A stretch of 64,000 bases of DNA from Candidatus Amesbacteria bacterium GW2011_GWC2_45_19 (GTDB taxonomy: Bacteria; Patescibacteriota; Microgenomatia; CAZETR01; Amesbacteraceae): positions 36,130-100,129 of the forward strand of contig LCKS01000004.1 in assembly GCA_001001555.1 (NCBI GenBank). Direction: 5' to 3'. Every line of letters starts with the position of its first letter. The stretch's first letter is position 1. The position numbers were made by a program, and so were the translations under genes. Below, in pieces: positions 3,220 to 47,058 of this stretch. The notes beneath the pieces are model-generated. The model worked only from the letters and a program-made list of their open reading frames with translations, ran no database searches and was not told the DNA's origin.

Positions 3220-4146
3220 TCAGCGGGTAAGATATTTGTCAATGTTCAAATTGTGTTCTTCGATAGTGACGGCATAATGAGTGGTCCCGTCGGGGGCGTG
3301 CAGATAAAACCAGTAAGGCGAAATTCGGGGAGAGCGGGCGGCTTCAATGGAGGCTAAGCCAGGATTGGCAATGGGAGTGGGGGGAAAGCCAGGATAGATG
3401 TAAGTGTTGTAGATGGAAGGATAACGCGTATCTGTAACAGGAGACCAATCGCCGCGGGCATACTGGACAGTGGCGTCTACCTGAAGGGGCCAGCCGGCCC
3501 TAAGACGTTTGAGAAGAATCCCGGCTACGATGGGACGATCGGCTACAGTTCTGGTTTCCCGCTCAACCAGTGAAGCCAAAATCAGAATATCCGGGTCGAT
3601 GGGGCCTACTTTACGGTCAAAAGTAGAAACCATAGTGTCCACAATATCTGCCGGCGTGGCGTAGGTGGGAATGAGGTAGGTATCGGGAAAGAGACGGCCT
3701 TCAAGAGTGGCGGTTAGAGACAAAAAAGTAGTAGTATCAAAATTCTCCAGATTGGAAGCTAGGCGGGCGGCAATTTGCTCCCGGCGCCAACCCTCCGGAA
3801 TGGTGACCCAAATGTCCCTAGGACCGGCGGTCAGTGAAGTGAGGAGGTTTTTGAGACCGGTACCAGAAGAAATAAGATAAGTCCCCGCTTTAATTTTTTT
3901 GTCCAGGCCGGAAAATATAAAGTATATCTTGGCCACTTGAGCCGAGCGGATAAATTTTTGGGCAAAAAGAGCCTGGGAGACGGCAGAGGCCGACTGGGCG
4001 GGAGTAATGATGAAAGAGCGATGAAGATCTGAAGCAGGATCTAGAGGAGAAAGCTGGCGGGTCCACCAGGTAAAGCCCAATAAAGCGGTTAAAGTGAGAA
4101 GAACAAACGAACCGGCCAGGAGCTTCACGATTTTAGACCTCCTCAA
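3220..4146 (-). CDS. mltG: endolytic murein transglycosylase MltG/YceG family
   Basis: N-terminal TM; motifs DTYLIP, LASLVERE, LQVDATVQYA, SIYNTYIYPGFPPTPIANPG typical of YceG/MltG. Confidence 0.8.
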   Translation of the reverse strand: MRRSKIVKLLAGSFVLLTLTALLGFTWWTRQLSPLDPASDLHRSFIITPAQSASAVSQALFAQKFIRSAQVAKIYFIFSGLDKKIKAGTYLISSGTGLKNLLTSLTAGPRDIWVTIPEGWRREQIAARLASNLENFDTTTFLSLTATLEGRLFPDTYLIPTYATPADIVDTMVSTFDRKVGPIDPDILILASLVERETRTVADRPIVAGILLKRLRAGWPLQVDATVQYARGDWSPVTDTRYPSIYNTYIYPGFPPTPIANPGLASIEAARSPRISPYWFYLHAPDGTTHYAVTIEEHNLNIDKYLTR

Positions 4147-4344: not shown

Positions 4345-4833
4345 TTAACGGGTTTTAGATTTCCAGTCAAGGCGCTTGCGAAAAATTCCCTCTGTATAGC
4401 CTCCTTCTTTGATAAATTTCTCTTCCAGAGACCTTATCTGTCTATCTAAAAGATAGTTGGTTCTTCTAATAAGGTTGGCCGAATAATTAAGAGGGATAAA
4501 TGGGTTAAGATTGTCCCGTTTACCCCCCTTATCCCACTTGGGTAAAATTGTCAGTTCTCGGGTTCGGGCAAAGTCTTCATAATCTTTAAGCAGTTCTTCG
4601 TTAGACCCCCTGGTTACTCCTAAAAGTTTAATATAACCCTTGAGGCTTTTTTGGAGGTAGCCCTCAACAATACACTGCTTGCTAGATCTGGCGGCTTGAA
4701 CCATCTGTTCTCTGGTTCGTAGATATTCCCTTCCGGAAAGAAACCTGTCGCAAAATTGAATAGTCAGATCGTAGACTTCTATCGAGTTTTGGTAAGTGAT
4801 TAGATACTCGTATCCAGGTTTTGATCCAGCCAT
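4345..4833 (-). CDS. four-helix-bundle protein (Avd / 23S rRNA IVS-like family) with C-terminal extension
   Basis: YQNSIEVYDLTIQF...QMVQAARSSKQCIVEGY...LLGVTRGSNEELLKDY resembles the TIGR02436 pattern (RAA.S...NIAEG ... ArGS..EL). Confidence 0.5.
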   Translation of the reverse strand: MAGSKPGYEYLITYQNSIEVYDLTIQFCDRFLSGREYLRTREQMVQAARSSKQCIVEGYLQKSLKGYIKLLGVTRGSNEELLKDYEDFARTRELTILPKWDKGGKRDNLNPFIPLNYSANLIRRTNYLLDRQIRSLEEKFIKEGGYTEGIFRKRLDWKSKTR

Positions 4834-5958: not shown

Positions 5959-8021
5959 TATTTTAGAGAACGGACGGAGACGGTAATGTGCTTAGAAACG
6001 CGAGGTAGGGTGGCCAGAAAAGCGGGCAGCCGGGGAGAAATTAGAATGTTTATTTGGCCAATGGCGGGTAAGGATTGGAGATATTCTTTAGCCCAGCCCG
6101 GATATTTGCCAGCTATGTCTTTGGCAATTTTTGCAGTATCCATTTGCGGCAGAAGCAAAGCGGCTACCCGGACTTGAAAAGTGGCGGTGTTTTTGTCGGC
6201 TTTTTTGACAGTCATGCTCTGGGTGACGTCGGTATCAAAAACGTAGCCGGCGGGTATTTGGGGATTGACCTGGGCGTCAATGATGGACTGCAGGTCAGAC
6301 TTAGAAACTACCAAGCCGCGGGCGGTGGCCGAAAGTTTAAGAGAAACGTTGTCTGCCTCTTCGTCGATCTTGTAATTAAAGTTTTCGGAGACCGACTGGA
6401 GACTGATAGATTCGGCAATAAGCTGCATGTCTGAACTGACTTTTTGAGACAGCTCGTCCTTGGCCTTATTTTTCAGAGTTTCAGTCAAGTCGGCCCGGAG
6501 TTTGGCGGCATCATCTTTGGAGACCACTTTGGCCTGCCGGCTGGTACCTCCCGAAAGGGCCGCATCGTTTTTTGCGGAGGTTTCTACAGAGGAGTAACTT
6601 CCTATACGAAAGTCTGTTCCAGCAGAAAGATTATAGTCTCCGCCAATTTGTCCGGCGGTAACTTTGGCAGTCACTTTTCCTGATTGAACGTTCGGGGCAT
6701 ATCCGCTAGCAGAGGCAACGGTGGCAATTTCATCTAAAACGAATTTCAGTCCGGATGGAGAAATTAAAATTGTCCCTGCAGTAAAAGTGCGACTGGCGGC
6801 AGCATTGTTGGTGATAACTACCGAACCCGTGGCTTTGTCGCCGACAATTTTGGAGCCAGTGGCGGGAATGGATTTGTCTGCAGAAACCGCTTCCTCCAAG
6901 CTTTCTGCCGGCAGGTCTTTGCCGCCGGCCACAAGTTCAAATTGATGCTCCAGATTCTTGGGGGTGACAAACAAAACAACTTCGGCTTTGGGTAAGTACC
7001 AGTAAGCTGCTCCTAATCCGCCGACGACAGCAAGAAATATTAACACGGAAATGATAGCTACTGCAGAAAAATTGAGGTGAATTTTTGGCAAGTGAATCGT
7101 GGGGAGTTTAAATTTGGGTTTGGGTGGCACAACCACCGGAACAGGTTCCGGTTCCGGAGGCGGCGGAAGCGGAGATTGAGCGGCCACATCTATATCTTGG
7201 ACAAACCCCAGGTCAGAGGCAGAGTGAGCCGGTTGGGATTCAGTGGTAGGTTCTTCTTCAGCCCGAGCGACTTCTGATCCTCCAGAGAGGGCAATGGCCC
7301 GGATGGTGAAATCGGCCGGCAAAATTTCTACCTTGGGAAAGTGCAGAAAAGGCAGGTGTTTTTGCGGGGCTTGCCAGGGGTGGGCCAAAAGCAATTGTTT
7401 GACTTCCTCCAAGTCTATGCCGGAATCATACAGAAGCATCCGGGAAGGCAGCATGTCAATATCGGAAAAGCGGGACAGACCTTCGACCACATCGTCGGCC
7501 AGGTGGGAACTTTTTTGCACCAGATAGGTACCGTTAATCTTACCTAATCTAACCAAGGTGATTTCCAGACAGTGCGGCCAAAAACCAATGAGAATGGCGG
7601 TGGGGGGGACACCTTCAGTGGACTGGAGATATTTGGCGGCGGCTTCGGGAGTAACTACAAATCCCACCGGCACCAGGTCCAGTTTTTCTGATAAAGCTTT
7701 AAGAAGACGAAGTTGGGAGGGGAAAATTTTGTCTGCCCCTACCCAATCGGCGGGCAGGCCAAAGATAACCTTGTGGACGTCTACTTTGCCGGTGGGGTCC
7801 AGGTGGGAAGTGGCGTCGGAAAGAGTGGCGTCCGCAATTGTGATAAGTGAGTCTTCGGCTTTGTCATCCCACGATTGGCTACTACTGACGGCTAAAACTT
7901 GGGGCTTGTCATTGATAACTGACCAAACAGCGCTTTTGATTAAACCGTGGTCGATCTCCAAAGCGAAAAAATATTCCCGGGCAGGGGTTTTTTCGGGTTT
8001 TTTAAGAAACGGCAGTTGCAT
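5958..8021 (-). CDS. membrane protein with N-terminal cytoplasmic actin-like (FtsA/PilM-like) domain, Pro-rich linker, TM, large extracytoplasmic C-terminal domain (possible PilM-PilN-like fusion)
   Basis: FALEIDHGLIKSAVWSV and ILIGFWPHCLEITLV resemble PilM/FtsA phosphate motifs; PPPPEPEPVPVVVPPKPK linker; TM AVAIISVLIFLAVVGGLGAAYWYL preceded by an IHLP/IHLNF stretch (PilN-like INLLP?). Confidence 0.4.
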   Translation of the reverse strand: MQLPFLKKPEKTPAREYFFALEIDHGLIKSAVWSVINDKPQVLAVSSSQSWDDKAEDSLITIADATLSDATSHLDPTGKVDVHKVIFGLPADWVGADKIFPSQLRLLKALSEKLDLVPVGFVVTPEAAAKYLQSTEGVPPTAILIGFWPHCLEITLVRLGKINGTYLVQKSSHLADDVVEGLSRFSDIDMLPSRMLLYDSGIDLEEVKQLLLAHPWQAPQKHLPFLHFPKVEILPADFTIRAIALSGGSEVARAEEEPTTESQPAHSASDLGFVQDIDVAAQSPLPPPPEPEPVPVVVPPKPKFKLPTIHLPKIHLNFSAVAIISVLIFLAVVGGLGAAYWYLPKAEVVLFVTPKNLEHQFELVAGGKDLPAESLEEAVSADKSIPATGSKIVGDKATGSVVITNNAAASRTFTAGTILISPSGLKFVLDEIATVASASGYAPNVQSGKVTAKVTAGQIGGDYNLSAGTDFRIGSYSSVETSAKNDAALSGGTSRQAKVVSKDDAAKLRADLTETLKNKAKDELSQKVSSDMQLIAESISLQSVSENFNYKIDEEADNVSLKLSATARGLVVSKSDLQSIIDAQVNPQIPAGYVFDTDVTQSMTVKKADKNTATFQVRVAALLLPQMDTAKIAKDIAGKYPGWAKEYLQSLPAIGQINILISPRLPAFLATLPRVSKHITVSVRSLK

Positions 8022-9792
8022 AGATGCGGCGGACGCCGGCGGATACCGCCTCCTGGCGGGTTATCTTTATCCTACCAATTTCCCCAGTGGATTGCACATG
8101 GGGACCGCCGCACAGCTCTTGGGAAAAATCCCCTATTGAATAAACCGAGGTCACCTCGGGATATTTTTCCGGGAAAAAAGCCAGGGCGCCTTCGGCCAGA
8201 GCTTGGGCTTTGGGCATTTCCACTCGCTCAATTTTAATGTCCTCTCCGATCTTTTTATTAACAATTTCCTCGACCTGTTTTATTTTGTCATCGGTAAGTT
8301 TTTCCGGATGGGAAAAATCAAAGCGTAGGCGTTCGACGGTAATATTGCTGCCTTTTTGAGACACGTGAATCCCCAGTACTCTCCTCAGGGCCGCGTGTAA
8401 AAGATGTGTGGCGGTGTGATACTTAGTAACAATTTCTGATTGGTCTTGCAGTCCTCCTTTGAACATGCTTGCGGAGGCAGTGCGAGATAACTTTTTATGT
8501 CTTTCGTTTATATGATCGAATTCATTTTTATCAAGGTCTTTCCCTTTTTGTTTAAATAATTCTTCTGTGACTTCGTAAGGGAATCCATATGTCTGATATA
8601 GATTAAAGGCGTTAAGCGCGTTCAGTTGGTTGTCTTGATATTTATTAAACTCTCGCAATCCTCTGTCTAAAGTGTCGCTGAATTTACTCATTTCTTCCTC
8701 TATTATTGACCGTACAGTTTCTCTGTCTTTAGATTCTTCGAAATACACGGCGTCTCTGTATGTTTCTAATACTGAATGACAGATAGCTTGAAAGCCAGGA
8801 ATTGGAGTTAGCCCGCCCTTGAGTTGATGCATCTTTACCGCAGCACGTCGAAGTAATCGACGAAGAAAATATCCTTGAGTCTTATTTGAGGGGGTTACTC
8901 CGTCTACCATCAAAAATGTGGCCGCCTTGAGATGGTCGGTTATTGTTCTCATTGCAGGCTTGTTTTGGTCGTCGGAATACTTTTTATCTGTATAGTCTTC
9001 GACCGTTTTAAGTATTATGGAAAATAGATCTGTTTTAAAAATGTCCGGGTCGTGGTTAACTGCGGCAGTGATTCTTTCCAATCCCCCGCCAAAATCTATG
9101 TTTTTTTTGGCTAGCGGTTCAAATCCATCTTTGGTTTTTTGATAGGTCATGAAGACGTTGTTGCCGATTTCCAAAAATCTGCCGCAGTCACAGTTGGGAT
9201 GGCAGGAGTCGCCGAATTTCGGATCGTGGGGGGTACCAAAATCATAAAAAACTTCAGAGTCTGGGCCGCCGGGTTCGCCAATTGGCATGCTGGCATAACT
9301 GCTTCTGGCCCACCAATTTTTTTCCACACCATAATAAAAAATGTGTTCTGACGAAACTCCCAACTTTTTCCAATTATCCGCGGCTTCCTCATCACGGGGA
9401 ACTTGATTATTCCCTTCAAATACGGAAACGTATAACCTTTTGGGGTCTAAGCCTAATTCTTTGGTAAAAAATTCCCAAATCCAGGCTTGTTGTTCGGCCT
9501 TGAAATAATCTCCCAGAGACCAGTTGCCCAGCATTTCAAAAAAAGTGGTGTGACAGTTGTCCCCAACTTCTTCAATATCCTGGGATCGGAAACATTTTTG
9601 GGAATCAACTAAACGGGTGCCTAAAGGGTGGGGTTGGCCCAGTAAGTATGGCAACATGGGTTGCATACCGAATCCGGTAAAGAGGGTAGTGGGATCGTTT
9701 TCGGGAACGAGAGGCGCCGAGGGAATTTCTATGTGTCCCCGGTCTTTAAAAAACTTCAGATATTTAGCTCTGACATCATTGGCCGAAACCAT
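8002..9792 (-). CDS. alaS: alanine--tRNA ligase (short form lacking C-Ala domain)
   Basis: KYLKFFKDRGHIEIPSAPLVPENDPTTLFTGFGMQP class II AlaRS N-terminus; editing domain HTATHLLHAAL and CGGPHV; 596 aa. Confidence 0.85.
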   Translation of the reverse strand: MVSANDVRAKYLKFFKDRGHIEIPSAPLVPENDPTTLFTGFGMQPMLPYLLGQPHPLGTRLVDSQKCFRSQDIEEVGDNCHTTFFEMLGNWSLGDYFKAEQQAWIWEFFTKELGLDPKRLYVSVFEGNNQVPRDEEAADNWKKLGVSSEHIFYYGVEKNWWARSSYASMPIGEPGGPDSEVFYDFGTPHDPKFGDSCHPNCDCGRFLEIGNNVFMTYQKTKDGFEPLAKKNIDFGGGLERITAAVNHDPDIFKTDLFSIILKTVEDYTDKKYSDDQNKPAMRTITDHLKAATFLMVDGVTPSNKTQGYFLRRLLRRAAVKMHQLKGGLTPIPGFQAICHSVLETYRDAVYFEESKDRETVRSIIEEEMSKFSDTLDRGLREFNKYQDNQLNALNAFNLYQTYGFPYEVTEELFKQKGKDLDKNEFDHINERHKKLSRTASASMFKGGLQDQSEIVTKYHTATHLLHAALRRVLGIHVSQKGSNITVERLRFDFSHPEKLTDDKIKQVEEIVNKKIGEDIKIERVEMPKAQALAEGALAFFPEKYPEVTSVYSIGDFSQELCGGPHVQSTGEIGRIKITRQEAVSAGVRRIYATAVS

Positions 9793-9860
9793 ATGGTAAT
9801 TTTAGCATTCATAGTGCTACTATTATGTACAGGTCTGATTTGAAGACCTACTTTGTGGTC

Positions 9861-9889
9861 TTGACAGGCAACCTAATTCCGGTTAGAAT
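9861..9889 (+). promoter_or_regulatory. sigma70-like promoter TTGACA-N17-TAGAAT driving phd/relE, near-leaderless (ATG about 7 nt after -10)
   Basis: ttgacaggcaacctaattccggttagaat directly upstream of ATG at 9896; preceded by hairpin aagacc-tactttgt-ggtctt. Confidence 0.45.
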
Positions 9890-9895
9890 TTCTAA

Positions 9896-10135
9896 ATGAC
9901 TAACCTATCTATTTCCCAACTCAAAATGAATCCGCGCCAGGCAATATTGGCGGCTCTTGACTATCCAGTAGCTATTAAAAGCCGGAATCAGGTTCAAGGT
10001 TATTTGGTCGGAAAGGATCTCTATGAAAAAATCATTACTTATATTGAAGATTTTATAGACCAAAGAGCTATCAAACATACGGACTTTTCCAAAGGTAGAG
10101 ATTTTGAAACCGTCGCCAAAAAACTGGGAATATGA
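9896..10135 (+). CDS. Phd/YefM-family antitoxin
   Basis: 79 aa; overlaps downstream RelE-like gene by 4 nt (ATGA); YefM-like length and charge pattern. Confidence 0.65.
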   Translation: MTNLSISQLKMNPRQAILAALDYPVAIKSRNQVQGYLVGKDLYEKIITYIEDFIDQRAIKHTDFSKGRDFETVAKKLGI

Positions 10136-10398
10136 GGGTCGTTCTTTCTCCCCGGGCGGAAAAGCAGTTAAAAAAATTACCTAAGATTGCCCAAATTGCG
10201 GCGGCTAATAAAATTAGATCAATAAGAGATAACGATATTACCGTCAATGAAGAGAAATTGGGCGGTTATAAGAATATCTATCGGGTCAGAATCGGAGACT
10301 ACCGGATTGTCTACCGCAAAATGGTTGGGGAACTATATATTGTCTTAATCCATCACCGTAAAGACGTTTATCTCCTACTCCATCGACTATTTAATTAG
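10132..10398 (+). CDS. RelE/ParE-family toxin (mRNA interferase)
   Basis: 88 aa, GDYRIVYRKMVGELYIVLIHHRKDVY typical of the RelE/StbE C-terminus. Confidence 0.75.
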   Translation: MRVVLSPRAEKQLKKLPKIAQIAAANKIRSIRDNDITVNEEKLGGYKNIYRVRIGDYRIVYRKMVGELYIVLIHHRKDVYLLLHRLFN

Positions 10399-10413
10399 TC
10401 TGATCGCTAGAGC

Positions 10414-10689
10414 TTGAGGGACATGCTAAAAATTCCTAAACAAATATATTTCGATCAGGAAACACTTACCCTCTATTCGGAATACGCTCAGATGGAACAT
10501 AAACCATTCGCCCTTGTCATCCGAGAAGTCTTAGCTGAAAAAGCCCCAGCGATCAAAAAACGTGTTGCCAAAACCGTAACAAAAAGTTCTTCCCTGCTTG
10601 ATCTTTATGGTTCTGTCAAAAGCCCGTACAAAAAACGTTTCTCTTCAGAGGAAGAACGGGCTTCCTTCGAAATGAGGATACGCTCATAA
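10414..10689 (+). CDS. hypothetical protein (possible orphan antitoxin-like)
   Basis: 91-aa ORF following relE; no recognisable motif. Confidence 0.35.
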   Translation: MRDMLKIPKQIYFDQETLTLYSEYAQMEHKPFALVIREVLAEKAPAIKKRVAKTVTKSSSLLDLYGSVKSPYKKRFSSEEERASFEMRIRS

Positions 10690-10856
10690 ATATACACTCG
10701 TGCTAGCCCCGGTACTTTTTTTGGAGTTAACGTGGCTACTCAATTCATTTTATAAACAGAAAAAGGACTCAGTCATTTTGATACTCAAGAAAATGCTTAG
10801 TTTCTCAAATTTTGAAGTCATTGAAAAAGAACTTGTCACAAACATGGTATCTCTAT

Positions 10857-10969
10857 AGCGAGCGGGAATGGGATCTGAGCCAGGAGGAGATGGCTTTTAA
10901 TTCAGGCTGGGAATTGTCCACATAAACCATAAAATCGGCGGCTTCTTTAAATATAAATCCCACCTGTAA
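10857..10969 (-). pseudogene. remnant of doc 3' end (diverged duplicate)
   Basis: Minus-strand translation ...FIFKEAADFMVYVDNSQPELKAISSWLRSHSRSL* aligns to Doc residues REKEIVKFMVSVANQNLSVDEISSWLKSN. It starts immediately after the vapC stop. Confidence 0.55.
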
Positions 10970-11359
10970 TTACGGTTCGAGGCGTTTTACCCAATTAAAT
11001 TTACTTAACCCCTTATCATACGAATATATCTCTCTAACATTGTCATCTTTAATAAGAAATATATTCAAACAGTCGGTCCAGTCCACAGTATGAGACTCGT
11101 AAAATTCTATTGCTTTTACAAGTATCATCTTGTTATCAATTTCAATATTAGAAGATATAACTGTTTTCAAACATTTCACGACAACACGTTTATCCAACTC
11201 ATATGCTGACCTTAATACCCACTCAATCTCAGAAAAAACAAAGCTGGAAGTCTGTAAATTTTTCGCTTCTTTTAATAAAGCTTTGCACCTGTCTGATTTG
11301 TTGCCAAACCTCACAAACACTTCAATAAAAATATTAGTATCTACGAATTTATTTACCAT
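10970..11359 (-). CDS. vapC: PIN-domain toxin VapC
   Basis: Starts at internal Met MVNKFVDTNIFIE (the ORF-track N-extension overlaps vapB); acidic PIN residues D..E..D; SYDKG motif. Confidence 0.75.
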   Translation of the reverse strand: MVNKFVDTNIFIEVFVRFGNKSDRCKALLKEAKNLQTSSFVFSEIEWVLRSAYELDKRVVVKCLKTVISSNIEIDNKMILVKAIEFYESHTVDWTDCLNIFLIKDDNVREIYSYDKGLSKFNWVKRLEP

Positions 11360-11615
11360 ATTTCTTGGCGAGTCTTTGGGCTTCTTTTTTCCTAGCGATT
11401 TCAATGATTTGTAATGTTGAATATTTTTTAGAAATAGGATGATTTGCCAAAAGACCCTGCAGACTATCCCAATCATCCTCTGCCTTTTCCAAAAAAATGG
11501 TATTATCTTTAACTTTCGTCCATAATTTACTTCCTTTATTCAGTCCCAATAGGGAGACAATAGATACCGGCAAAGTAAGCTGATTTTTTGAAGTTAACGT
11601 CAATAATGTATTCAT
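11349..11615 (-). CDS. vapB: AbrB/MazE/SpoVT-type antitoxin VapB
   Basis: 88 aa; swapped-hairpin-like N-terminus SKNQLTLPVSIVSLLGL; 11-nt overlap with vapC. Confidence 0.65.
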   Translation of the reverse strand: MNTLLTLTSKNQLTLPVSIVSLLGLNKGSKLWTKVKDNTIFLEKAEDDWDSLQGLLANHPISKKYSTLQIIEIARKKEAQRLAKKYGK

Positions 11616-11618
11616 CCC

Positions 11619-12059
11619 TTACTTTATAACATCTTCCTTACTCTTTGTCAACATCCTTACTTTTATCCTAGAGACCACCAGCATGTATCCGTTGGATTTG
11701 AGCCAGGAGGAGATTTCGTCAACGGAGAGATTTTGATTGGCTACAGAAACCATAAATTTCACTATCTCTTTCTCTCTAGCTGTGATTTTAACTCCGTTTA
11801 GGGATAGAAAGTTGTAAGTAGTAATAAAAGCGGTGCGTTTATTACCATCTATGAAGGGATGATTTTTAACGATAGACTGGATGAGGGCTCCGGCTTTGAG
11901 AAAAATGTCGGGGTATAAGTCCTGGCCATCGAAAGTGGCGAAAGGGCGGAAAATAGCTGACTGAAGCATACTGGTATCCCGAATACCAGAGGATCCGCCG
12001 TATTTTTGGATTGCCCGCTCGTGAACTGCCAAAACCTGTTTAAGAGTAAAACTTATCAC
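11619..12059 (-). CDS. doc: Doc (death-on-curing) Fic-family toxin
   Basis: Fic motif HPFIDGNKRTA; 146 aa. Confidence 0.8.
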   Translation of the reverse strand: MISFTLKQVLAVHERAIQKYGGSSGIRDTSMLQSAIFRPFATFDGQDLYPDIFLKAGALIQSIVKNHPFIDGNKRTAFITTYNFLSLNGVKITAREKEIVKFMVSVANQNLSVDEISSWLKSNGYMLVVSRIKVRMLTKSKEDVIK

Positions 12060-12307
12060 TGAAGTTGGGCTAGTTCTTTGAGAGCGTGACCATAGCGTTT
12101 TTCCACCTCTTTAATTAAATCAAACCACTCTTTATCCGGGGCGGTCGCATATTGGGTGGATCTGGGAATATGGGTAGAATAAGTGATAGATCCGTCTGTG
12201 TGGGCAACGGAAATTTTGGAATTTTTGGTGACTTTGTTTTTGGTGACAAAATCTCTTGGAAGAGTGACACCCAAAGAATTTCCAATTTGGACGACGGATT
12301 GGATCAT
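12056..12307 (-). CDS. AbrB/Phd-type antitoxin partner of Doc
   Basis: QIGNSLGVTLPRDFV swapped-hairpin motif; 4-nt overlap with doc. Confidence 0.65.
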   Translation of the reverse strand: MIQSVVQIGNSLGVTLPRDFVTKNKVTKNSKISVAHTDGSITYSTHIPRSTQYATAPDKEWFDLIKEVEKRYGHALKELAQLQ

Positions 12308-12315
12308 GGGCTTAT

Positions 12316-12343
12316 GTTATAACATGTTATAACGGTTTGTCAA
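12316..12343 (-). promoter_or_regulatory. promoter (-35 TTGACA, -10 TATAAC) overlapping two tandem copies of the palindrome GTTATAAC (putative antitoxin operator)
   Basis: Plus-strand atgttataacatgttataacggtttgtcaa immediately upstream of the antitoxin ATG at 12307; leaderless arrangement. Confidence 0.45.
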
Positions 12344-12363
12344 GAGGGCTTGAGGGGCGTGCC

Positions 12364-12576
12364 CTACTTCGCTTGTGGGCTACGTAAGGGTGAACCGCCG
12401 CGGTGGAAGAAGCGGCGCAGGTGGGTGGAAAGTTCCGGGGGAGATTTACCTTTGAATTGCTTGATAGCGATGCGGATGTCGCGCAGAAGAAGAACTGTTT
12501 CGATGGTTACAAAGACCAGGAGAATGGTCAGGGTGACGATGACTATAACGAGTAAGAATTGAGCCAAATTAGTCAT
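12364..12576 (-). CDS. small single-TM membrane protein (LapA/DUF1049-like?)
   Basis: 70 aa; TM LLVIVIVTLTILLVFVTI followed by a basic tail; abuts rodZ-like gene. Confidence 0.3.
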   Translation of the reverse strand: MTNLAQFLLVIVIVTLTILLVFVTIETVLLLRDIRIAIKQFKGKSPPELSTHLRRFFHRGGSPLRSPQAK

Positions 12577-13205
12577 TTTTTAACAACGGTACGCATCAGA
12601 CTGGCAGTCTTGCCGGACTTGGAAGTAGCCATAATAGAAATAATATTGTCTCCTGGTGTGAGAGGCAGGCGGAGAAAGAAACGGCCGCCTTTTTCCAGAG
12701 CCACCAGCTGGCCGTTAACTGAAACGGTGGCTTCCGGGCTAGTGATACCCACAACTTCAACGGTGGCCTCGGTGGTTTCTTGCCTATCAATTGGCATAAC
12801 TAGGCGCAGAGAAGGCGGGCCGGTGAGCACCCGGTATTGGAAAATGAGATAAGCCCCAAAGAGAGTAAAAATTAGGGCGATGGCGGCAATGATAGTGGTG
12901 CGCGGGGTCCAAAAACTGACTTCACTCACCGGTTTGACCATCCCCCGGGGGATAATTTGCCCTTGCTCGTTTTCCCCAAAATCCCGGCGGAAAATGGCCA
13001 GGATACTTTCCGGCTTTAACTCTAAAAATTCACTGTAATTTCTGATAAATCCCCGGGCTACCGCCCCCGAAGGCAATTGGGTGTAATCGTCGGCTTCGAC
13101 GGCATCTAAAAAGCGGGCCCGGATGCGGGTGATACGGGAAACATCCTTGAGATCCAGCTTTTGAGCGTTACGGGCTGTCTGCAGAATTTGGCCGACTGTT
13201 TTCAT
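12573..13205 (-). CDS. rodZ: RodZ-like HTH (Cro/C1-type) membrane protein
   Basis: N-terminal HTH ILQTARNAQKLDLKDVSRITRIRARFLDAVE, TM, C-terminal DUF4115-like domain. Confidence 0.6.
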   Translation of the reverse strand: MKTVGQILQTARNAQKLDLKDVSRITRIRARFLDAVEADDYTQLPSGAVARGFIRNYSEFLELKPESILAIFRRDFGENEQGQIIPRGMVKPVSEVSFWTPRTTIIAAIALIFTLFGAYLIFQYRVLTGPPSLRLVMPIDRQETTEATVEVVGITSPEATVSVNGQLVALEKGGRFFLRLPLTPGDNIISIMATSKSGKTASLMRTVVKK

Positions 13206-15288: not shown

Positions 15289-16933
15289 CTACCACCGGCA
15301 GGATCATGGGGCGGCGGCCGGTGCGGTCGAAGAAGAAACGCTCCAGGGTATCGGATATTAACTCCCGCAGGCGGCGCTCGGAATCGATGTGGCCCAGGCG
15401 GCGCAGGACAGTTTGTTTAACCAGAGCCCCGGCCTCGGCTAAAAGATTAGTGTTTTCTTTGTTGAAAACAAAACCCCGGCTGATAAGGTCCACGTTTTCA
15501 ATCCGGGACAGCTGGTTTTGCTTGGCTTGGATAACGGCCACTACTACGCCCTCTTCGGCCAGGACCCGGCGGTCCCGCAGAACCACATGGCCCACATCTC
15601 CGACTCCCAGGCCATCGACCATGATGTTTTTAACATCAACCACCGGGCCGGCTTTGACGAGGTCCGGAGTTACTTCGATAGTTTGGTTGTATTCGGGAAG
15701 GAGAATTTGGGCTTCCTGATAACCCATAGATTGGGCCAGGCGGGAATATTGAACCATATGCCGGTAGGTGCCGCCGATGGGAACCAGATATTTAGGCCGG
15801 GTCAGGGCTATCATTAGCAGTAAATCTTGTTGGCTGCCGTGGCCGGAGACGTGCAGATTATCGGTGATATTGGAATAAACGACGGTGGCCCCGAGTTTAG
15901 AGAGAGAATCAATCAAAGATTGAGTGGCCGACTCGGTGCCGGGAATATAGTCCGAGGAAAAAACAATTTTGTCTCCGGGCTTGATAACGGCGTCTTGATG
16001 TTCGCCCGCAGCCAGCCGTTCCATGGCCGAGCCAGTCTGGCCCTGGGAACCGGCTACTAATAAACATAAATTTTGCGCGGGCAACTTGCGGGCTTGTTTA
16101 GGGTCGACAAATACCCCTTTGGGGACTTTGAGATAGCCTAGGTTTTGAGCTACGTTTAGGTTGCGGCCAATGGACCGGCCCAGAATGGCCACCCGCCGGC
16201 CGTGACGGATGGCGGCATCGATAGCCTGGCGGAAACGGCTAATATTGCTGCCCATGGTGGTGACGATGAATTTGCCGGGGCAATGGTTAATTTCCCGCTC
16301 AAACATTTCTTCCAGGGTTTTTTCGGAAGGAGTGTGGCCTTTGCGCTCGCTGCCCAAACAATCGGAAAGCAGGAGATGGATGCCGGAGTTGCCGGCGGCG
16401 GCGATGCGGCCGATATCGGGAAGGACGCCGTCAACAGGAGAAAAATCAAATTTAAAATCGCTGCCGTGGTAAACGGTACCGGCGGGAGTTTTAATAATTA
16501 AATTGGTGGCATCCGGAATGGAATGAGAAATGCGGGCAGATTCGACGGTAAATTTTCCCAAGGTTAGGGACTGGCCAGGAACTAAAATATTTACTTGCTT
16601 GGGAATCCCTTCGTATTCGGCCAGCTTTTCCATAACCAGGTGGGCGGTGAGTTTGCTGGCATAAACCGGTACGCCTTTGAGCTGGGGCAGGATGTAGGGC
16701 AGGGCGCCGGTGTGATCTTCGTGGCCGTGGGTGAGAACTAAAGCCCTGACCCGGTTAAGTTTGTTTTTAAGATATGAAATATCGGGAATTAATAGATCCA
16801 CTCCCAGCATGTCTTCGGTGGGAAAACCGATGCCGCAGTCAACCAACAAAATATCGTCGCCATATTCGTAAACGAACATGTTGGACGTTACCTTACCAAA
16901 ACCCCCCAATGAAATGATTTTCAAATTTTCCAT
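15278..16933 (-). CDS. rnj: ribonuclease J
   Basis: metallo-beta-lactamase HGHEDH, beta-CASP and C-terminal domain; 551 aa. Confidence 0.85.
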   Translation of the reverse strand: MENLKIISLGGFGKVTSNMFVYEYGDDILLVDCGIGFPTEDMLGVDLLIPDISYLKNKLNRVRALVLTHGHEDHTGALPYILPQLKGVPVYASKLTAHLVMEKLAEYEGIPKQVNILVPGQSLTLGKFTVESARISHSIPDATNLIIKTPAGTVYHGSDFKFDFSPVDGVLPDIGRIAAAGNSGIHLLLSDCLGSERKGHTPSEKTLEEMFEREINHCPGKFIVTTMGSNISRFRQAIDAAIRHGRRVAILGRSIGRNLNVAQNLGYLKVPKGVFVDPKQARKLPAQNLCLLVAGSQGQTGSAMERLAAGEHQDAVIKPGDKIVFSSDYIPGTESATQSLIDSLSKLGATVVYSNITDNLHVSGHGSQQDLLLMIALTRPKYLVPIGGTYRHMVQYSRLAQSMGYQEAQILLPEYNQTIEVTPDLVKAGPVVDVKNIMVDGLGVGDVGHVVLRDRRVLAEEGVVVAVIQAKQNQLSRIENVDLISRGFVFNKENTNLLAEAGALVKQTVLRRLGHIDSERRLRELISDTLERFFFDRTGRRPMILPVVVEV

Positions 16934-18100: not shown

Positions 18101-18219
18101 TAGTAGGTGGGCAGGAATTGTTTGAGATTGTTTTTCATTTCCACACCCAATGGTCCGTAGTCATAAAAGTCCTGCAAGCCTTCGTTTTTGCACAGGCTGA
18201 CAATTTTTTCCATGAGGTC
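18100..18219 (-). pseudogene. remnant of lon-like gene 3' end. The last 28 nt are nearly identical to 19100..19127.
   Basis: Minus-strand [43 protein letters not shown] ends NLKQFLPTY*, identical to the C-terminus of ORF 19096..20076. Its TAA overlaps the ATG of the phosphoesterase gene. Confidence 0.5.
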
Positions 18220-18383
18220 CATGTGTTTAGTTTACAACAAAAAGCTCTTCTTTCCAATTCCGACTCGATTTGTCGTTTGGCGCGGCCGCGACTAACGGCA
18301 AAATTGACGGGTACTGACAAATAGTTTGTGGGGATAAAATACTTCAGTAGTTTTCTCCAACTCAATTTTCTTTTCATCGGTAG

Positions 18384-18803
18384 TCATCGTAAGGGGTTGA
18401 TTACTTTAATATCTTTCATAGGATAGTGCTTGATGTTCATGGTCAAAAGAGTCAGTTTGTGAATTTTGCAAGTTGCGGCGATTAAATAATCTATTAAGTT
18501 AATATTAACGTTTCGATACTTATTCCAATACTCTCCTGCCAGTTTTGCTATCGCGAAGTTTATGGGGACCTGGTTATGCCACTTGAAAAAGTGTCTGTTC
18601 GAGGCCTCTTCTTCGGGAAAAGAATTTTTGTAAATTTCGCCAACCGTTAAGATAGAGATAGCTACGAACTGATCATCCACTATTTTTGAAACTGCTTCAA
18701 TTGCCCTTTCATTCCCCCTGATTATCCAAATTGAGACATCTGAATCAAGTAAAAATCTATCTTTCCTTTTTGGGCTTGGCATAGGGAATATATGAATAAT
18801 CAC
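18384..18803 (-). CDS. PIN-domain toxin (VapC-like)
   Basis: FLLDSDVSIWIIRG N-terminus and DYLIAATCKIHKLTLLTMNIKHY C-terminus; AT-rich. Confidence 0.7.
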   Translation of the reverse strand: MIIHIFPMPSPKRKDRFLLDSDVSIWIIRGNERAIEAVSKIVDDQFVAISILTVGEIYKNSFPEEEASNRHFFKWHNQVPINFAIAKLAGEYWNKYRNVNINLIDYLIAATCKIHKLTLLTMNIKHYPMKDIKVINPLR

Positions 18804-19068
18804 GGTTAGTTGCGGCCCGGCCTTCGTTTACCCAGTTTACAATGTTTTCCATGTTTTCCCATCCAGGCCGGCTTCTTACGCCCAACACACCGGTAAACTT
18901 TCTCAACGCATCCGCATAAGAAACTTTTCTCTTTCTCAATTTCAACTGCTTGCCAACCGCCATAGCCACAAAACGGCTTCTTTGCCTAGTGGACACTTGA
19001 TCTTTCAGGTCTGAGTATAAGTCCCAAGGCAACGTAAAATTCACTCTAGTCGTTGTTTGCATATACAC
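18757..19068 (-). CDS. ribbon-helix-helix (CopG-like) antitoxin
   Basis: TRVNFTLPWDLYSDLKDQVSTRQRSRFVAMAV RHH pattern; overlaps the PIN gene. Confidence 0.6.
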   Translation of the reverse strand: MYMQTTTRVNFTLPWDLYSDLKDQVSTRQRSRFVAMAVGKQLKLRKRKVSYADALRKFTGVLGVRSRPGWENMENIVNWVNEGRAATNRDYSYIPYAKPKKER

Positions 19069-19095: not shown

Positions 19096-20076
19096 TCAAT
19101 AGGTGGGTAGGAATTGTTTGAGGTTGTCGGCGGTAATATAAAATTGGTTGCCTTTGCCTTCGACTATGAGTTTGGCGGTTTTGCGGACGATGCCCTGGAT
19201 AGTGCGCTCCAGAGTGCGGATACCGGCGTCAAAGCCTAGGGGGCGGACGATTTGGGGCCAAACGGCGTCGTCGATTTTGAGAGCTGAATCCGGAAGAGAA
19301 GCATTTTTAATCTCGATGGGCAAAACGTAATCGCGGGCGATGGTGATTTTTTCCTCGTCGTTGTAGGAGGGCATAGTCAGAGGCTCGAGCCGGTCCATGA
19401 CGGCAGCAGAAATATTGGTAGTGTTGTTACAAGTGGCAATAAACAGAACCTGGGAGAGATCGAAAGGATAATCAATGTAATGATCGGTAAAACCGGCATT
19501 TTGTTCCGGGTCGAGAAGCTCGACCAATACACCCATGATTTCAGAGCGGGCGGAATCGGCCACCCGGTCGATTTCGTCCAGTAAAATTACCGGGTTTTTG
19601 GTTTGGGCCCGGCGCAGATTTTTGATGATTTGGCCCGGCTCGGCGTCGGGGTAAACCCGGGACTGGCCACGCAAGTCTAAGGCCAAGCCCATGCCGCCAA
19701 AGGGAATGCGCACAAATTTTCTGCCCATAGCTTCGGCGATGGATTTGGCCAGAGTGGTTTTGCCGGTACCCACCAGGCCCACCAGCAATAAAATCGGGGC
19801 GTGATAAATGGTGCTTTTTTGCTGATTTAGGATCAGGACTGAGAGATATTCCAGAATGCGTTGTTTTAAATCTTCCAGGCCGTAGTGGTGCCGGTCGAGA
19901 ATTTGCTTGGCGTGACCCAAGTCTAAAATATCTTTGGTGGTTTTGTCCCAGGGAAGATTAGTAATCCAATCAATATAGTGGGCCGCCTGCTCGGGATTGG
20001 TGCCCCGAGTCAAAACCTCTTCGGCTTTGGCCCGCAGGTCATCCGGCAGCGTGGCAGTCTTTAACTTGTCATCCAT
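19096..20076 (-). CDS. Lon-like AAA+ ATPase module (no N-domain, no S16 protease domain)
   Basis: Residue-level match to the Lon AAA+ region: HYGLEDLKQRILEYL, GTGKTTLAKSIAEAMGRKFVRI, ILLDEIDRV, LDPEQNAGFTDHY, ATCNNTTNI, DRLEPL. It ends ([10 protein letters not shown]) exactly where canonical Lon continues into the protease domain. Confidence 0.75.
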   Translation of the reverse strand: MDDKLKTATLPDDLRAKAEEVLTRGTNPEQAAHYIDWITNLPWDKTTKDILDLGHAKQILDRHHYGLEDLKQRILEYLSVLILNQQKSTIYHAPILLLVGLVGTGKTTLAKSIAEAMGRKFVRIPFGGMGLALDLRGQSRVYPDAEPGQIIKNLRRAQTKNPVILLDEIDRVADSARSEIMGVLVELLDPEQNAGFTDHYIDYPFDLSQVLFIATCNNTTNISAAVMDRLEPLTMPSYNDEEKITIARDYVLPIEIKNASLPDSALKIDDAVWPQIVRPLGFDAGIRTLERTIQGIVRKTAKLIVEGKGNQFYITADNLKQFLPTY

Positions 20077-23421: not shown

Positions 23422-24796
23422 GGATAGTGACGGCTATTATAATATCACCGGTCTTGAAGTCAACTGGCGGAGAAAAAACGGCCCCGAATTCCTGGCCGGT
23501 TTTAATTTTTTCAACTTCGGCTTTGCCAATTTTAAGAGATTTTATTTTGGTAATTTTGTCACCGATTTTGATCGAGTTGGTTTTGAGTATTTCTCCTTCG
23601 GTGCATTTACCCCCGGCCACCCGTAGATTGTCTATTTTGAACCCGGCCAGAATCTGGGCCCGGCCGGTAATGGTTTCGGTCTCTTGAGGATGGACTAATT
23701 TTTCTATGGCATCTAAAAGCTCATAAATAACATTAAAAGAGTGGATTTTAACTTTGTCTATTTCGGCTAGTTTGGCGGTGGAGCCGGGAATTTTGACATT
23801 AAAAGCAATTATTTGAGAATTTGTGGAAGTGGCAAAAAGAATGTCAGATTCGGTAACTTCGCCAGTAGCTGACGAAATTAGATTGACTTCCGGGGGTAAC
23901 AAAGAAGTAATGGCCTCAAGAGAACCGAGAGTGTCGGCTTTGAGGATAATTTTGACTATATCACCCTCTCCCTTCGGCCTGCCTGCCGGCAAGGCAGGGT
24001 TTCCCCCTCTTAAATTAAGAGGGGGAACGAAAGGGGGTGATATTTTAGTGATAGCAGAACTTAGTACAGACCCTACAGGGACGACGGAAGTGAGGCCGAG
24101 AATTTCGACGGGGGTAGAAGGCAGAGCAGGATTGACAGACAGGGCCTTGGCTTTACCGACCAATTTGTCTGAAAATAGCTCCTGGCCAACTTTTAAAGTA
24201 CCGTTTTTGACGATGCACATAGCCAAAGGGCCGCGGCGGGTATCCAAGTGAGATTCAAGAACAATACACTCTAGAGAGCCGGAAGGGTCGGAGACTGGAG
24301 GTTGGAGGCTAGAAACTAGATGGACCATCTCCAAAAGTTCAGGCAAGCCCTGGCCGGTTTTGGCAGAAACGGGAATGGCAGGTACGTCACCTCCAAACCC
24401 TTCGACTAAAACTGCGTTTTCAACCAATTGGGATTTGACGGTGTCTGCGGAGGCCCCGGGAAGGTCCATTTTATTAATAGCCACAATCATGGGAATACCG
24501 GCTGATTTAATGGTGGCTATAGATTCTTTGGTCTGGGGCATGACCCCGTCTACGGCGGAAATTACCAAAATAGCAATGTCGGCAATATCAGCTCCCCGGC
24601 TGCGCATTTGAGAAAAAGCAGCGTGTCCCGGCGTGTCGATGAAAGTGATACCGTTCGTCTGGAAAGCGTGAGTGCTTTGGGTTATACCCCCGACTTCACG
24701 AGAGGCGATGTTGGTTTTACACAGAGCATCAAGAAGAAAAGTTTTGCCATGATCTACATGGCCCAAAATGACAACGATAGGTGGTCTGGTTTGCAT
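23408..24796 (-). CDS. infB: translation initiation factor IF-2 (short form starting at the G domain)
   Basis: [28 protein letters not shown] GTPase motifs; 462 aa. Confidence 0.85.
   Translation of the reverse strand: MQTRPPIVVILGHVDHGKTFLLDALCKTNIASREVGGITQSTHAFQTNGITFIDTPGHAAFSQMRSRGADIADIAILVISAVDGVMPQTKESIATIKSAGIPMIVAINKMDLPGASADTVKSQLVENAVLVEGFGGDVPAIPVSAKTGQGLPELLEMVHLVSSLQPPVSDPSGSLECIVLESHLDTRRGPLAMCIVKNGTLKVGQELFSDKLVGKAKALSVNPALPSTPVEILGLTSVVPVGSVLSSAITKISPPFVPPLNLRGGNPALPAGRPKGEGDIVKIILKADTLGSLEAITSLLPPEVNLISSATGEVTESDILFATSTNSQIIAFNVKIPGSTAKLAEIDKVKIHSFNVIYELLDAIEKLVHPQETETITGRAQILAGFKIDNLRVAGGKCTEGEILKTNSIKIGDKITKIKSLKIGKAEVEKIKTGQEFGAVFSPPVDFKTGDIIIAVTIHGAS
23939..24022. mobile_element. 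RPE-like nested palindromic element (TIR TATCACCC/GGGTGATA; inner hairpin CCCCCTCTTAA-tt-TAAGAGGGGG plus CCTGCC-GGCAA-GGCAGG) inserted in-frame within infB
   Basis: About 84 bp (28 codons). Translated within IF2 as ...VPPLNLRGGNPALPAGRPKGEGDIV. A homologous element lies in grpE. Confidence 0.55.
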
Positions 24797-25801: not shown

Positions 25802-25841
25802 TATACCACCCCCACCCTCCCCCTCCTAATCTAGGAGGGGG
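25802..25841. repeat. left inverted repeat TATACCACCCCCACCCTCCCCCTCCTAATCTAGGAGGGGG (contains hairpin CCCCCTCCTAA-tc-TAGGAGGGGG)
   Basis: Inverted partner at 27011..27048; the hairpin overlaps the DUF559 stop (..LTPS*). Confidence 0.6.
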
Positions 25842-26260: not shown

Positions 26261-27022
26261 ATGGTCAGTCGTTTGTATTCCGCTATATATTTATTGGAAA
26301 AATTATCTAATTTGGGGGCCATGAAGGTTAATATGCAGTATTTAACGAAAGGTGGCCCGGAATTAAATCACTTTATCGATCGTCAGGCACACCCTGCTAG
26401 AAATGAATATCTTGATATATGCAACCTTAAAAGATTTGTTGAGAGTGGCGAATATGTGATCTCAAATAAATATGTATGTATTTCGACTACATTTGAAACT
26501 TCCGATGTCAAATATAAGGCTTTTATTGGTCTTGATGTGGAGATCGGCGATGAGAAAGTAGTGTTTAATGTTGCCAAGTTTCTCGCACATAAATTAGGTA
26601 AATCGATTGATGTATTTAAAACAACGCGCGGTTTCCACTTTTTTATTCCTGATTTGGTATTTTCTGGTGATTTTGAGTACTTAACGAAAATATTTGAAAT
26701 TGCGAACGATGCTTCTTTGCGGATTGGAGACAAGTGGGTCGCAGGATATTTTGACTGTGTAAAAAAAGCAAAAACTTATAAAGATTTACAACAAATTTCG
26801 CGAGAAATATTAAACAATTTCGGACACTATCAAGCCAGAGGAAAATACACCTTCTTTGACTTAAGACATATCGCTCATGGCATGTTCGAATATGAACGTC
26901 AGCGGGGTATTTCTGATCAGAATAATGGTGTTAGAACACAATTGTTTTTTAGAATAACATCCAAGAACCACAACGATCATCCTCCGGTGTTTATAAAACA
27001 GTTTATTTATTCCCCCTCCTAA
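26261..27022 (+). CDS. hypothetical protein, possible archaeo-eukaryotic primase-polymerase (PrimPol/AEP) domain
   Basis: IGLDVEIGDE (motif I DxE), then about 28 aa later TTRGFHFFIP (motif II sxGxH), then an acidic motif III candidate; AT-rich; start may be an internal Met. Confidence 0.35.
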   Translation: MVSRLYSAIYLLEKLSNLGAMKVNMQYLTKGGPELNHFIDRQAHPARNEYLDICNLKRFVESGEYVISNKYVCISTTFETSDVKYKAFIGLDVEIGDEKVVFNVAKFLAHKLGKSIDVFKTTRGFHFFIPDLVFSGDFEYLTKIFEIANDASLRIGDKWVAGYFDCVKKAKTYKDLQQISREILNNFGHYQARGKYTFFDLRHIAHGMFEYERQRGISDQNNGVRTQLFFRITSKNHNDHPPVFIKQFIYSPS

Positions 27023-27048
27023 GTTAGGAGGGGGACGAGGGGGTGGTA
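27011..27048. repeat. right inverted repeat (hairpin CCCCCTCCTAA-gtt-AGGAGGGGG, spacer ACGA, then GGGGGTGGTA)
   Basis: Its reverse complement TACCACCCCCTCGTCCCCCTCCTAACTTAGGAGGGGG matches the left repeat at 25802; the hairpin supplies the ...SPS* stop of the 253-aa ORF. Confidence 0.6.
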
Positions 27049-47024: not shown

Positions 47025-47058
47025 ATATGTTGGGCTAGTTGCTTGTTATAATGGGAAG

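Follow-up and report, generated by a model that had tools for sequence, protein, structure and literature searches.

How does a toxin–antitoxin (TA) operon that carries neither a transposase nor an integrase enter a new genome, and what becomes of the gene in which it lands? The question is posed by a locus in a 64,000-nucleotide (nt) stretch of contig LCKS01000004.1 (positions 36,130 to 100,129 of the forward strand) from Candidatus Amesbacteria bacterium GW2011_GWC2_45_19. In this stretch, hereafter the window, whose coordinates are used throughout for positions in it, a vapBC operon follows the toxin gene of a resident phd-doc module and is itself followed by a short doc-like remnant. How such naked TA operons move without either enzyme has been poorly documented at the level of single nucleotides. 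At the present locus an empty site, both junctions and a donor-like copy from a different candidate phylum can be compared, together with what is apparently a mosaic scar of the previous address. Judged from these sequences, it is a well-resolved example of a recombinase-less TA cassette moving between candidate phyla into another toxin gene, and the event belongs to a recurrent pattern of gene-end insertion in these genomes. A second addiction module has here landed in a toxin gene, and its promoter has rewritten the C-terminus of the first toxin.

The cassette interrupts doc ahead of its native stop

An earlier sequence-only reading of this DNA had noted that doc ends 3 nt before the vapB ATG, and had placed the vapBC cassette just after the doc stop. 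The first statement holds to the nucleotide, with the TAA of doc lying 3 nt ahead of the ATG at 11615. The second does not: the cassette lies inside doc, five codons ahead of the native stop. This emerges from the comparison with other strains that the same reading had proposed. The sister genomes L013/L107, L017 and L104, with the gene order UDG, RNase J, FtsK, RodZ-like, phd, doc, …, alaS, are without the cassette, and a 21-nt core repeat, two copies of which flank the insert in the window, is single in L013, L017 and L104, where both copies align to the one doc end. The phd-doc region of the window matches L013 at 76% nt identity (12695-11691), L017 at 84% (12333-11695) and L104 at 87% (12279-11691). 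In all three comparisons homology ends at 11691-11695, after codon 122, and resumes beyond vapC in the remnant (10891-10853). Here the downstream core copy and its next two bases match the L013 doc end at 22 of 23 positions (10891-10869), L017 is 82% identical over the last 39 nt including the stop (10891-10853; E 5e-5), and L104 is 82% identical over 38 nt (10891-10854).

The protein tells the same story. The closest Doc homologues (87-90% identical) are 127-128 amino acids (aa) long, cover only 87-88% of the query, on which they reach no further than residues 127-128, and have the C-termini SWLKSHSRLL*, HSHSL* or HSTTIV*. Against a family of about 125-130 aa ending in SWLKSHSxxL, the Doc of the window is atypical in having 146 aa, of which residues 123-146 are unrelated to the homologues. 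Residues ~132-146 match the DNA ahead of vapB in the vapBC loci L018, L019 and L021, which in the Gottesmanbacteria copies is non-coding or upstream sequence. Since homology to the cassette-free sisters ends after codon 122, the present stop and the last 24 residues of Doc are, on this comparison, encoded by the inserted DNA, including the vapB promoter region. The phd-doc module, intact in the sister genomes, is evidently ancestral at this position. Two further claims of the sequence-only reading are upheld, namely that the cassette is AT-rich compared with its surroundings (32.7% guanine plus cytosine (GC), against 42.9% in native doc, 52.5% in ftsK and 48% in the whole window) and, through the cassette-free sister genomes, that the doc toxin gene was the insertion target of a second TA module.

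The same arrangement is found in 12 of the 12 contigs fetched, which come from several independent groundwater metagenome assemblies and are identical over 9800-12400 except for one single-nucleotide polymorphism and one run of Ns. Its recurrence across independent assemblies rules out an assembly artefact.

A foreign cassette with relatives in another candidate phylum

The cassette extends from 53 nt upstream of vapB to the vapC stop. Its 700 nt (11668-10969) are 89.6% identical, with sharp ends, to a locus of a Candidatus Gottesmanbacteria genome (L019; GCA_016218205.1), while L021 and L022 are 84.5% identical over window positions 11664-10969 and L018 is 65% identical over 11668-10966. Outside the cassette, no sequence in the 64 kb compared aligns to those vapBC loci. 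In every host the cassette has 33-34% GC, versus 45-48% in its surroundings. According to the NCBI taxonomy, Amesbacteria and Gottesmanbacteria are different candidate phyla of the Microgenomates group. As the same cassette occurs at 89.6% identity in a genome of a different candidate phylum, these observations indicate a foreign, AT-rich unit that has probably been transferred horizontally between candidate phyla.

The 53-nt leader holds a promoter-like TTGACA (11651-11646) and TATAAA (11628-11623) separated by a 17-nt gap. Both elements were read directly and are conserved in L018, L019 and L021; the automatic promoter scan had passed over the site on account of its final A. Three AGTAAGG repeats at 19-nt spacing (11662-11655, 11643-11636 and 11624-11617), conserved in the same three loci, are candidate operator sites for VapB; they now fall within the reading frame of doc, and the last of them spans its stop codon (11619-11621), just ahead of the vapB start.

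The interval of 823 nt between the two cores contains only vapB and vapC and no mobility gene. The 25-nt filler that separates the upstream core from the cassette aligns neither to the sister doc genes nor to L019, L021 or L018, and the 20-nt spacer that follows the vapC stop matches neither L019 nor the doc genes. We also considered the filler as a relic of the carbohydrate-kinase tail that borders the cassette in Gottesmanbacteria, but the local alignment proved not significant (p ~0.3; one variant gave p 0.04, uncorrected), and this reading is retained as no more than a lead. In 14 more distant vapBC relatives from metagenomes we found no flanking repeats and no doc or kinase fragments, so that flanking repeats are not a property of the vapBC family as a whole.

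The doc-like remnant is a mosaic

The sequence-only reading had pointed to a doc-like stretch on the minus strand straight after the vapC stop, had aligned it to Doc and had taken it for a diverged doc 3' end. The stretch is present as described (10969-10853) and the alignment bears scrutiny: BLASTP gives 14 of 31 identities to Doc residues 97-127 (pairwise E 1e-6), and the two doc ends share a 21-mer at 20 of 21 positions. In a six-frame search of the 64 kb the remnant is the only second match to the Doc C-terminus (E 0.004; 1.4e-4 in the reverse direction), and the core 21-mer, ATCTCCTCCTGGCTCA[A/G]ATCC, has no other occurrence on the two strands of the window, even when as many as four mismatches are tolerated. 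At the same 823-nt spacing there is a second in-register block, 18 of 21 nt identical (10913-10933 and 11736-11756); the whole in-register stretch of 78 nt is only ~64% identical and has a mosaic appearance. A doc-derived fragment thus does lie downstream of vapC, but to call it a diverged copy of this doc's own 3' end would be too simple: its last 39 nt are the displaced native end, whereas the 57 nt before the core are closer to another doc lineage than to the resident one.

That lineage was recognized through the peptide. An exhaustive phmmer search of 1.84 billion representatives returned a single credible match, P0191 (E 7e-4; 62% identity over 29 residues), and a word-indexed search for relatives of the remnant peptide gave no candidate. 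The remnant and P0191 share the motifs ADFM, VDN and PELK, which the family of the resident Doc is without. P0191 is itself an internally deleted doc of 47 codons, made of ~10 N-terminal codons joined to the final ~35, and stands after an intact AbrB-type antitoxin, the pair lying at 1234-1663 of L023. We label the P0191/L023 lineage docB and the resident lineage docA.

At the nucleotide level the mid segment of the remnant is identical to the resident doc, to L017 and to L104 at 30 of 57 positions each and to the docB sequence L023 at 36 of 57. In the core the order reverses, with 20/21 positions shared with the resident doc, 18/21 with L017, 19/21 with L104 and 11/21 with L023; the tail gives 14/18 with L017, 12/18 with L104 and 4/18 with L023. 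A maximum-chi-square scan of the informative sites places one breakpoint, at the 5' edge of the core, to the left of which docA-like and docB-like sites number 6 and 12, and to the right 17-18 and 1, L017 and L104 serving in turn to represent docA (Fisher p 1e-4; permutation p ~0.001 with either). As these alignments have it, the remnant is a mosaic of a docB-type piece, the core and the native docA tail, and not a decayed copy of the resident doc end. The features of this and of the other loci discussed below are collected in Table 1.

Table 1. Coordinates of the insert in doc, of its neighbors and of two further gene-end inserts in the window
Feature	Position	Strand	Details
phd-type antitoxin	12056-12307	minus	83-aa open reading frame (ORF), AbrB/MazE-like; resident phd-doc module
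doc ORF	11619-12059	minus	146 aa; Pfam Fic/DOC PF02661, E 1.6e-19
Native part of doc	11694-12059	minus	codons 1-122, ending ISSWLKS; 76-87% nt identity to L013/L017/L104
Foreign 3' end of doc	11619-11693	minus	codons 123-146 + TAA; from the 25-nt filler and the vapB promoter region
Core repeat, copy 1	11694-11714	minus	ATCTCCTCCTGGCTCAAATCC = ISSWLKS; last native doc sequence
Filler	11669-11693	minus	25 nt, AACGGATACATGCTGGTGGTCTCTA; between core copy 1 and cassette
vapBC cassette	10969-11668	minus	700 nt, promoter + vapB + vapC; 32.7% GC
vapB antitoxin	11349-11615	minus	88 aa, AbrB/MazE-like N-terminus
vapC toxin	10970-11359	minus	129 aa; PIN PF01850, E 8.4e-10, 39.7 bits (cut-off 23.6)
Doc-like remnant	10853-10969	minus	38 residues, LQVGFIFKEAADFMVYVDNSQPELKAISSWLRSHSRSL*; in frame with vapC, directly after its stop
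Spacer	10949-10968	minus	20 nt, after the vapC stop
Doc-like mid segment	10892-10948	minus	KEAADFMVYVDNSQPELKA; in register with doc codons 97-115; docB lineage
Core repeat, copy 2	10871-10891	minus	ATCTCCTCCTGGCTCAGATCC = ISSWLRS; 20/21 identical to copy 1
Displaced native doc tail	10853-10870	minus	HSRSL + TAG; matches L017/L104 doc ends; homologues end HSRLL* or HSHSL*
Phd/YefM-ParE module	9896-10398	plus	ParE E 2.2e-8; PhdYeFM E 4.7e-5
RHH-like antitoxin	10414-10689	plus	apparently intact
Truncated PIN/VapC-like fragment	10700-10858	plus	52 codons, central third only; hhalign probability 95.9%, E 5e-9, VapC alignment columns 39-84
Second vapBC-type cassette, antitoxin	18757-19068		103 aa
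Second vapBC-type cassette, PIN toxin	18384-18803		Pfam E 1.8e-10
28-nt direct repeat	19100-19127 and 18104-18131		last 9 codons of Lon-like AAA+ gene; flank the second cassette
191-aa ORF	47017-47592		no Pfam match; between rpsK and dnaK
39-nt direct repeat	46986-47024 and 47589-47627		last 12 codons + stop of dnaK; 37/39, both differences synonymous

Gene-end inserts recur in this genome and its relatives

The cassette has a comparable setting in the Gottesmanbacteria genome L019, where it lies between 26-nt direct repeats (25 of 26 identical) at 812-nt spacing that represent the last codons of a carbohydrate-kinase gene. The Gottesmanbacteria-type contigs L018 (144-4447) and L019 (2093-4495) each hold three diverged copies of the end of this kinase gene (PF01256), which comprise its last ~15-20 codons and, where complete, have a stop of their own. 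They separate vapBC, an RHH-PIN pair and genes without assigned function, in an order that differs between the two genomes. In L019 a long perfect palindrome (GGGGAGTTGACAACAATAACGCGGCCGCGTTATTGTTGTCAACTCCCC) stands directly after the downstream kinase-end repeat, at ~4485-4550.

Two further inserts of this kind occur in the window. First, a second vapBC-type cassette is flanked by copies of the last codons of a Lon-like AAA+ gene (Table 1), of which the copy at 18104-18131 still overlaps the next gene through the native TAATG stop/start. In L107 this gene end occurs once. Directly after the stop of its PIN gene the cassette keeps 38 nt of a former flank (18351-18388) that are 89% identical to the flank in L107, a relic comparable to the docB piece that follows vapC. 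The homologous counterpart of this module in L107 has a different location and lies among three repeats of a LAGLIDADG-like gene's 5' start (MTTDEKKIELE…; 2074-2131, 2765-2786 and 3529-3586), which separate a peptide-deformylase gene, a 216-aa gene and the RHH-PIN module; in this array the repeated unit is a gene start, not a gene end. Second, an ORF between rpsK and dnaK is flanked by copies of the dnaK end. We found no empty site for this insert, as every contig with the identical S11 protein carries it.

Across the four repeat pairs 7 of 10 differences are synonymous and at third positions, versus ~28% expected under neutrality by our own estimate (binomial p ~0.007). This suggests that the second repeat copies are the ends of once-functional alleles brought in by recombination, and it fits cassettes that travel with a gene-end copy rather than a duplication of the target at insertion. 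There are at least three inserts of the gene-end type in the same 64 kb (at doc, the Lon-like gene and dnaK), and one process seems to have acted on gene ends again and again, here and in related genomes. Several such inserts in one small genome suggest a general, testable route of gene gain in ultra-small groundwater bacteria, in which gene flow is otherwise hard to study.

How the cassette may have reached doc

We consider it probable, on balance, that a self-contained vapBC cassette of ~0.7 kb came in by horizontal transfer and that recombination placed it in the 3' end of the doc gene already present. The incoming DNA would have carried, 3' of vapC, the end of a different doc lineage from an earlier doc address, and the crossover with the resident gene would have taken place in the core ISSWL(K/R)S, the one stretch where the two are nearly identical. 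Possible routes are Campbell-type integration of a circle of ~0.82 kb and an equivalent short-homology exchange with linear DNA, by way of two short exchanges. The product would consist of doc(1-122) with the core, then filler, vapBC and docB piece, then the core with the native tail. Accordingly worded predictions can be made: a restored doc would read CTGGCTCA[A/G]ATCCCATTCCCGCTCGCTATAG right after native codons ending GTTGACGAA (VDE, 11723-11715), and the circle junction would read AAAGCCATCTCCTCCTGGCTCA[A/G]ATCCAACGGATACATGCTGG. We infer the crossover itself, the circular form and the previous residence at a docB gene from this end state. The crossover is favored over a staggered-cut duplication because the docB piece enters the core in the correct doc register, and it fits the presence of the native tail only after the downstream core. 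A position at the 3' end of the core would fit the one variable core base: copy 1 and the three sister genomes have A there, copy 2 has G.

Several points weigh against this account. The docB lineage is represented by one sequence (P0191/L023), which is 62% identical and is itself a deleted gene, and a docB-type parent with a docA-like tail may be an alternative source of the remnant. The protein searches with the remnant turned up no donor with vapBC beside a docB-type gene, the predicted restored 127-aa Doc is absent in both its K and R variants from a collection of 15 billion proteins, and neither an excised circle nor a restored doc allele was seen, all 12 population contigs carrying the insert arrangement. 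The 21 nt of the core are at or below the length usually held efficient for RecA-dependent exchange. The account offers no source for the 25-nt filler and the 20-nt spacer, and the single end state would fit one step as well as several.

The main rival to a crossover, to which we assign a distinctly smaller though still appreciable chance, is a former tandem of docA and docB. Here vapBC would have landed in or near docB and a deletion would have taken the last five codons of docA, phdB and most of docB, leaving a remnant that is wholly the 3' end of docB and that owes the docA likeness of its core and tail to family conservation or to local gene conversion. TA modules do pile up and decay in this island, as seen in the truncated PIN fragment, the orphan RHH-like antitoxin and the Phd-ParE module, a docB-type lineage with its own antitoxin exists, and the C-terminal ISSWLKSHS is fairly conserved in the Doc family. 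Yet a tandem origin requires more steps, and it would be a coincidence that docA homology ends precisely where the 20/21 patch has its 3' edge. It also sits poorly with the known docB, which differs from the remnant in precisely the core (11/21 nt) and tail (4/18 nt), where the remnant is 82% identical to docA orthologues, and no second doc follows the first in any of the three sister genomes.

Dedicated cassette recombination, in which a site-specific recombinase acting in trans (integron-like, Xer-like or other) would use the repeats as att sites, strikes us as unlikely. It would account for the recurring architecture of a promoter-bearing cassette followed by a gene-end copy, and for the arrays of L018, L019 and L107 in which cassette order is shuffled between relatives. 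The left junction ATCCAAC, read directly, also fits RYYYAAC. This corresponds to the integron core site GTTRRRY, which occurs as GTTGGAT at 11691-11697 on the plus strand, but at one boundary only, the other reading ATGGGAT. Moreover, the called genes within ~6 kb on either side include no recombinase and no integron integrase, and folds of the reconstructed circle junction and of 10840-10975 gave no attC-like hairpin (z +0.64 and +0.90), on which grounds, together with the single core site, we rejected an integron reading. A search for an att motif shared by the doc and kinase repeats was likewise not significant in either orientation (p 0.58 and 0.16), the Lon-like and dnaK repeats are also unrelated, and the 14 distant vapBC members are without flanking repeats.

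Less probable still, and largely refuted, is a long target duplication in situ, whereby ~96 nt of the resident doc 3' end would have been duplicated and the untranslated copy would then have drifted. The locus does show direct, in-register repeats around a cassette without mobility genes, both aligning to a single empty-site copy, a pattern as in Furuta et al. 2010 (PMC2853133). However, the identity varies strongly along the repeat, from 30/57 in the mid segment and 14/18 in the tail (the latter against L017) to 20/21 in the core, while the cassette is only ~10% diverged from its Gottesmanbacteria relative. Random decay cannot yield the derived ADFM, VDN and PELK that the mid segment shares with an independent doc lineage, and the native tail, found downstream only, is not duplicated. 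Chance similarity or an assembly chimera, which might be suspected for a remnant of 38 codons that was picked by eye, is already refuted by the pairwise E value and the standing of the remnant as the sole second match in the whole window, by an expectation (our own estimate) of ~5e-3 for a 20/21 21-mer among nearby pairs in 64 kb, by the matches to three orthologous doc ends and by the identical arrangement in independent assemblies.

Returning to the crossover and to its counterparts at other gene ends, we tentatively extend it, with more doubt than confidence, to a wider class: Patescibacteria, at least Amesbacteria, Gottesmanbacteria and relatives, may hold minimal recombinase-less mobile cassettes, often TA operons with their own promoter, each of which would carry, 3' of its last gene, a short copy of a host gene end, excise and integrate by short homology at that end and build integron-like arrays. 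Were this true, the attachment site of such a cassette would be a copy of the gene boundary that it last occupied, and doc and other widespread genes that are horizontally mobile and conserved in a 3' motif would be portable landing pads for jumps between distant lineages.

Relation to known systems

The closest described phenomenon is the insertion of restriction-modification (RM) systems that is accompanied by a long duplication of the target (Furuta, Abe and Kobayashi 2010, PMC2853133). As there, a small, selfish unit of the post-segregational-killing type, without transposase or integrase and with a GC content deviating from that of the host, lies between direct repeats that align to a single copy in an insert-free relative. 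Insertion with long target duplication is reportedly also to be credited to Nobusato et al. 2000. In some of the published RM cases, too, the repeat overlaps the last bases of a gene (PMC2853133). The present case differs in that its cargo is a TA cassette and its host a member of the Patescibacteria, that the near-identical repeat of 21 nt falls below the 30-bp threshold of that study (PMC2853133), that one arm comes from another doc lineage and that the copies at parallel sites differ synonymously. Such allelic or mosaic copies argue for recombination with a carried gene-end copy rather than for duplication at insertion.

With integrative elements at the 3' ends of genes or tRNAs the locus shares the layout B-O-P' … P-O-B', in which an identical core is flanked by element-specific arms and the displaced native end lies on the far side, and the tandem accretion in L018, L019 and L107 recalls tandem islands with att copies. 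Unlike such elements, the 0.8-kb unit has no recombinase within it or nearby and its independent sites have no core in common; nor is the target restored, since doc instead gains a foreign tail of 24 residues. A second likeness is to integron cassettes, among them the TA cassettes of chromosomal integrons, and to the Xer-dependent pdif modules of Acinetobacter plasmids, in which TA operons also occur as units of ~0.7-1 kb with a recombination-site-like repeat and in arrays of shuffled order. In contrast to these, the locus has no attC fold, no intI among the genes called within ~6 kb and no dif-like inverted arms, and its repeats copy the end of the adjacent host gene instead of a conserved site. 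From a typical Phd-Doc module it is set apart by the replacement of the 24 C-terminal residues of Doc. A literature search yielded no precedent for a TA cassette nested in a toxin gene, nor for the pattern in Patescibacteria, and we know of no described arrangement in which a toxin gene is the landing site for a second TA module with the second promoter inside the frame of the first toxin.

The two modules and their setting

In gene order and overlaps, and in the domains and catalytic motifs of their toxins, the VapBC and Phd-Doc modules are family-typical, and both are ordinary members of known families. The phd-type antitoxin is a weak match to Pfam MazE_antitoxin (23.5 bits, slightly below the cut-off of 24.7), is syntenic in L013, L017 and L104, and overlaps with its stop the GTG start of doc by 4 nt (GTGA). 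In Doc the motif HPFIDGNKRT is intact, fits the Doc-type HxFxDGNKR and occupies columns that are invariant in the homologue alignment. VapB, likewise a weak Pfam match (MazE_antitoxin E 2.9e-4; 21.2 bits, under the cut-off of 24.7), is the conserved partner of the PIN gene in L018-L022, and vapC overlaps its gene by 11 nt. All close VapC homologues are 129 aa long, and D7, E44, E46, D93, D96 and D115 are invariant among 21 homologues including the window protein. An identical VapC protein carries the source name Candidatus Amesbacteria GW2011_GWB1_47_26. The likely activities of the two toxins are those established for their families: Doc, a kinase of the Fic fold, inactivates EF-Tu and is counteracted by Phd, and VapC is a PIN RNase that VapB neutralizes.

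The resulting array of four genes, phd-doc-vapB-vapC, would have two putative promoters, the one in the vapB leader and a promoter-like TTGACA-18-TAACAT found upstream of phd by the promoter scan (12343-12314). As the sole terminator-like site in 9700-12700 lies on the plus strand (9831-9849), read-through from the phd promoter, and with it transcription of all four genes from there, is plausible.

The locus sits in a low-GC island of TA genes that extends from alaS (8002-9792) to the RodZ-like and FtsK genes (from 12573) and has 38.5% GC versus 52.5% in ftsK. The plus-strand PIN fragment of this island is without both of its ends and, standing behind the RHH-like antitoxin, has the appearance of a toxin that was inactivated while its antitoxin survived. 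The fragment and the doc tail are convergent, both frames stopping in the palindrome CTATAG (10853-10858). A 32-nt direct repeat within the fragment resembles the vapB start (10717-10748 and 11584-11615; 78% identical, with 94% in a 17-nt core at 10717-10733). It lies antisense to the PIN fragment, is not followed by further similarity and is probably coincidental. The alaS gene on the minus strand encodes 596 aa, and its counterparts in the sister genomes 571-574 aa; the usual bacterial alanyl-tRNA synthetase is much longer, and the C-terminal part is apparently missing.

Some repeats farther afield may be mentioned. In L107 a sortase gene has a second copy of its 3' end 179 nt farther downstream (16038-16081 and 16217-16260; 44 nt, 82% identical), the copy having an in-frame stop. 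A GC-rich hairpin motif (TCCCCCTCCTAA…TTAGGAGGGGG) occurs three times at distances of 1.2-1.8 kb (24002-24025, 25818-25841 and 27011-27034), and its copies may be intergenic terminators or a small repeat family. Finally, two stretches of extended coding repeats rich in Pro and Thr, with ACNCCN periodicity, lie at 59343-61090 of the window and presumably encode the linker of a surface protein.

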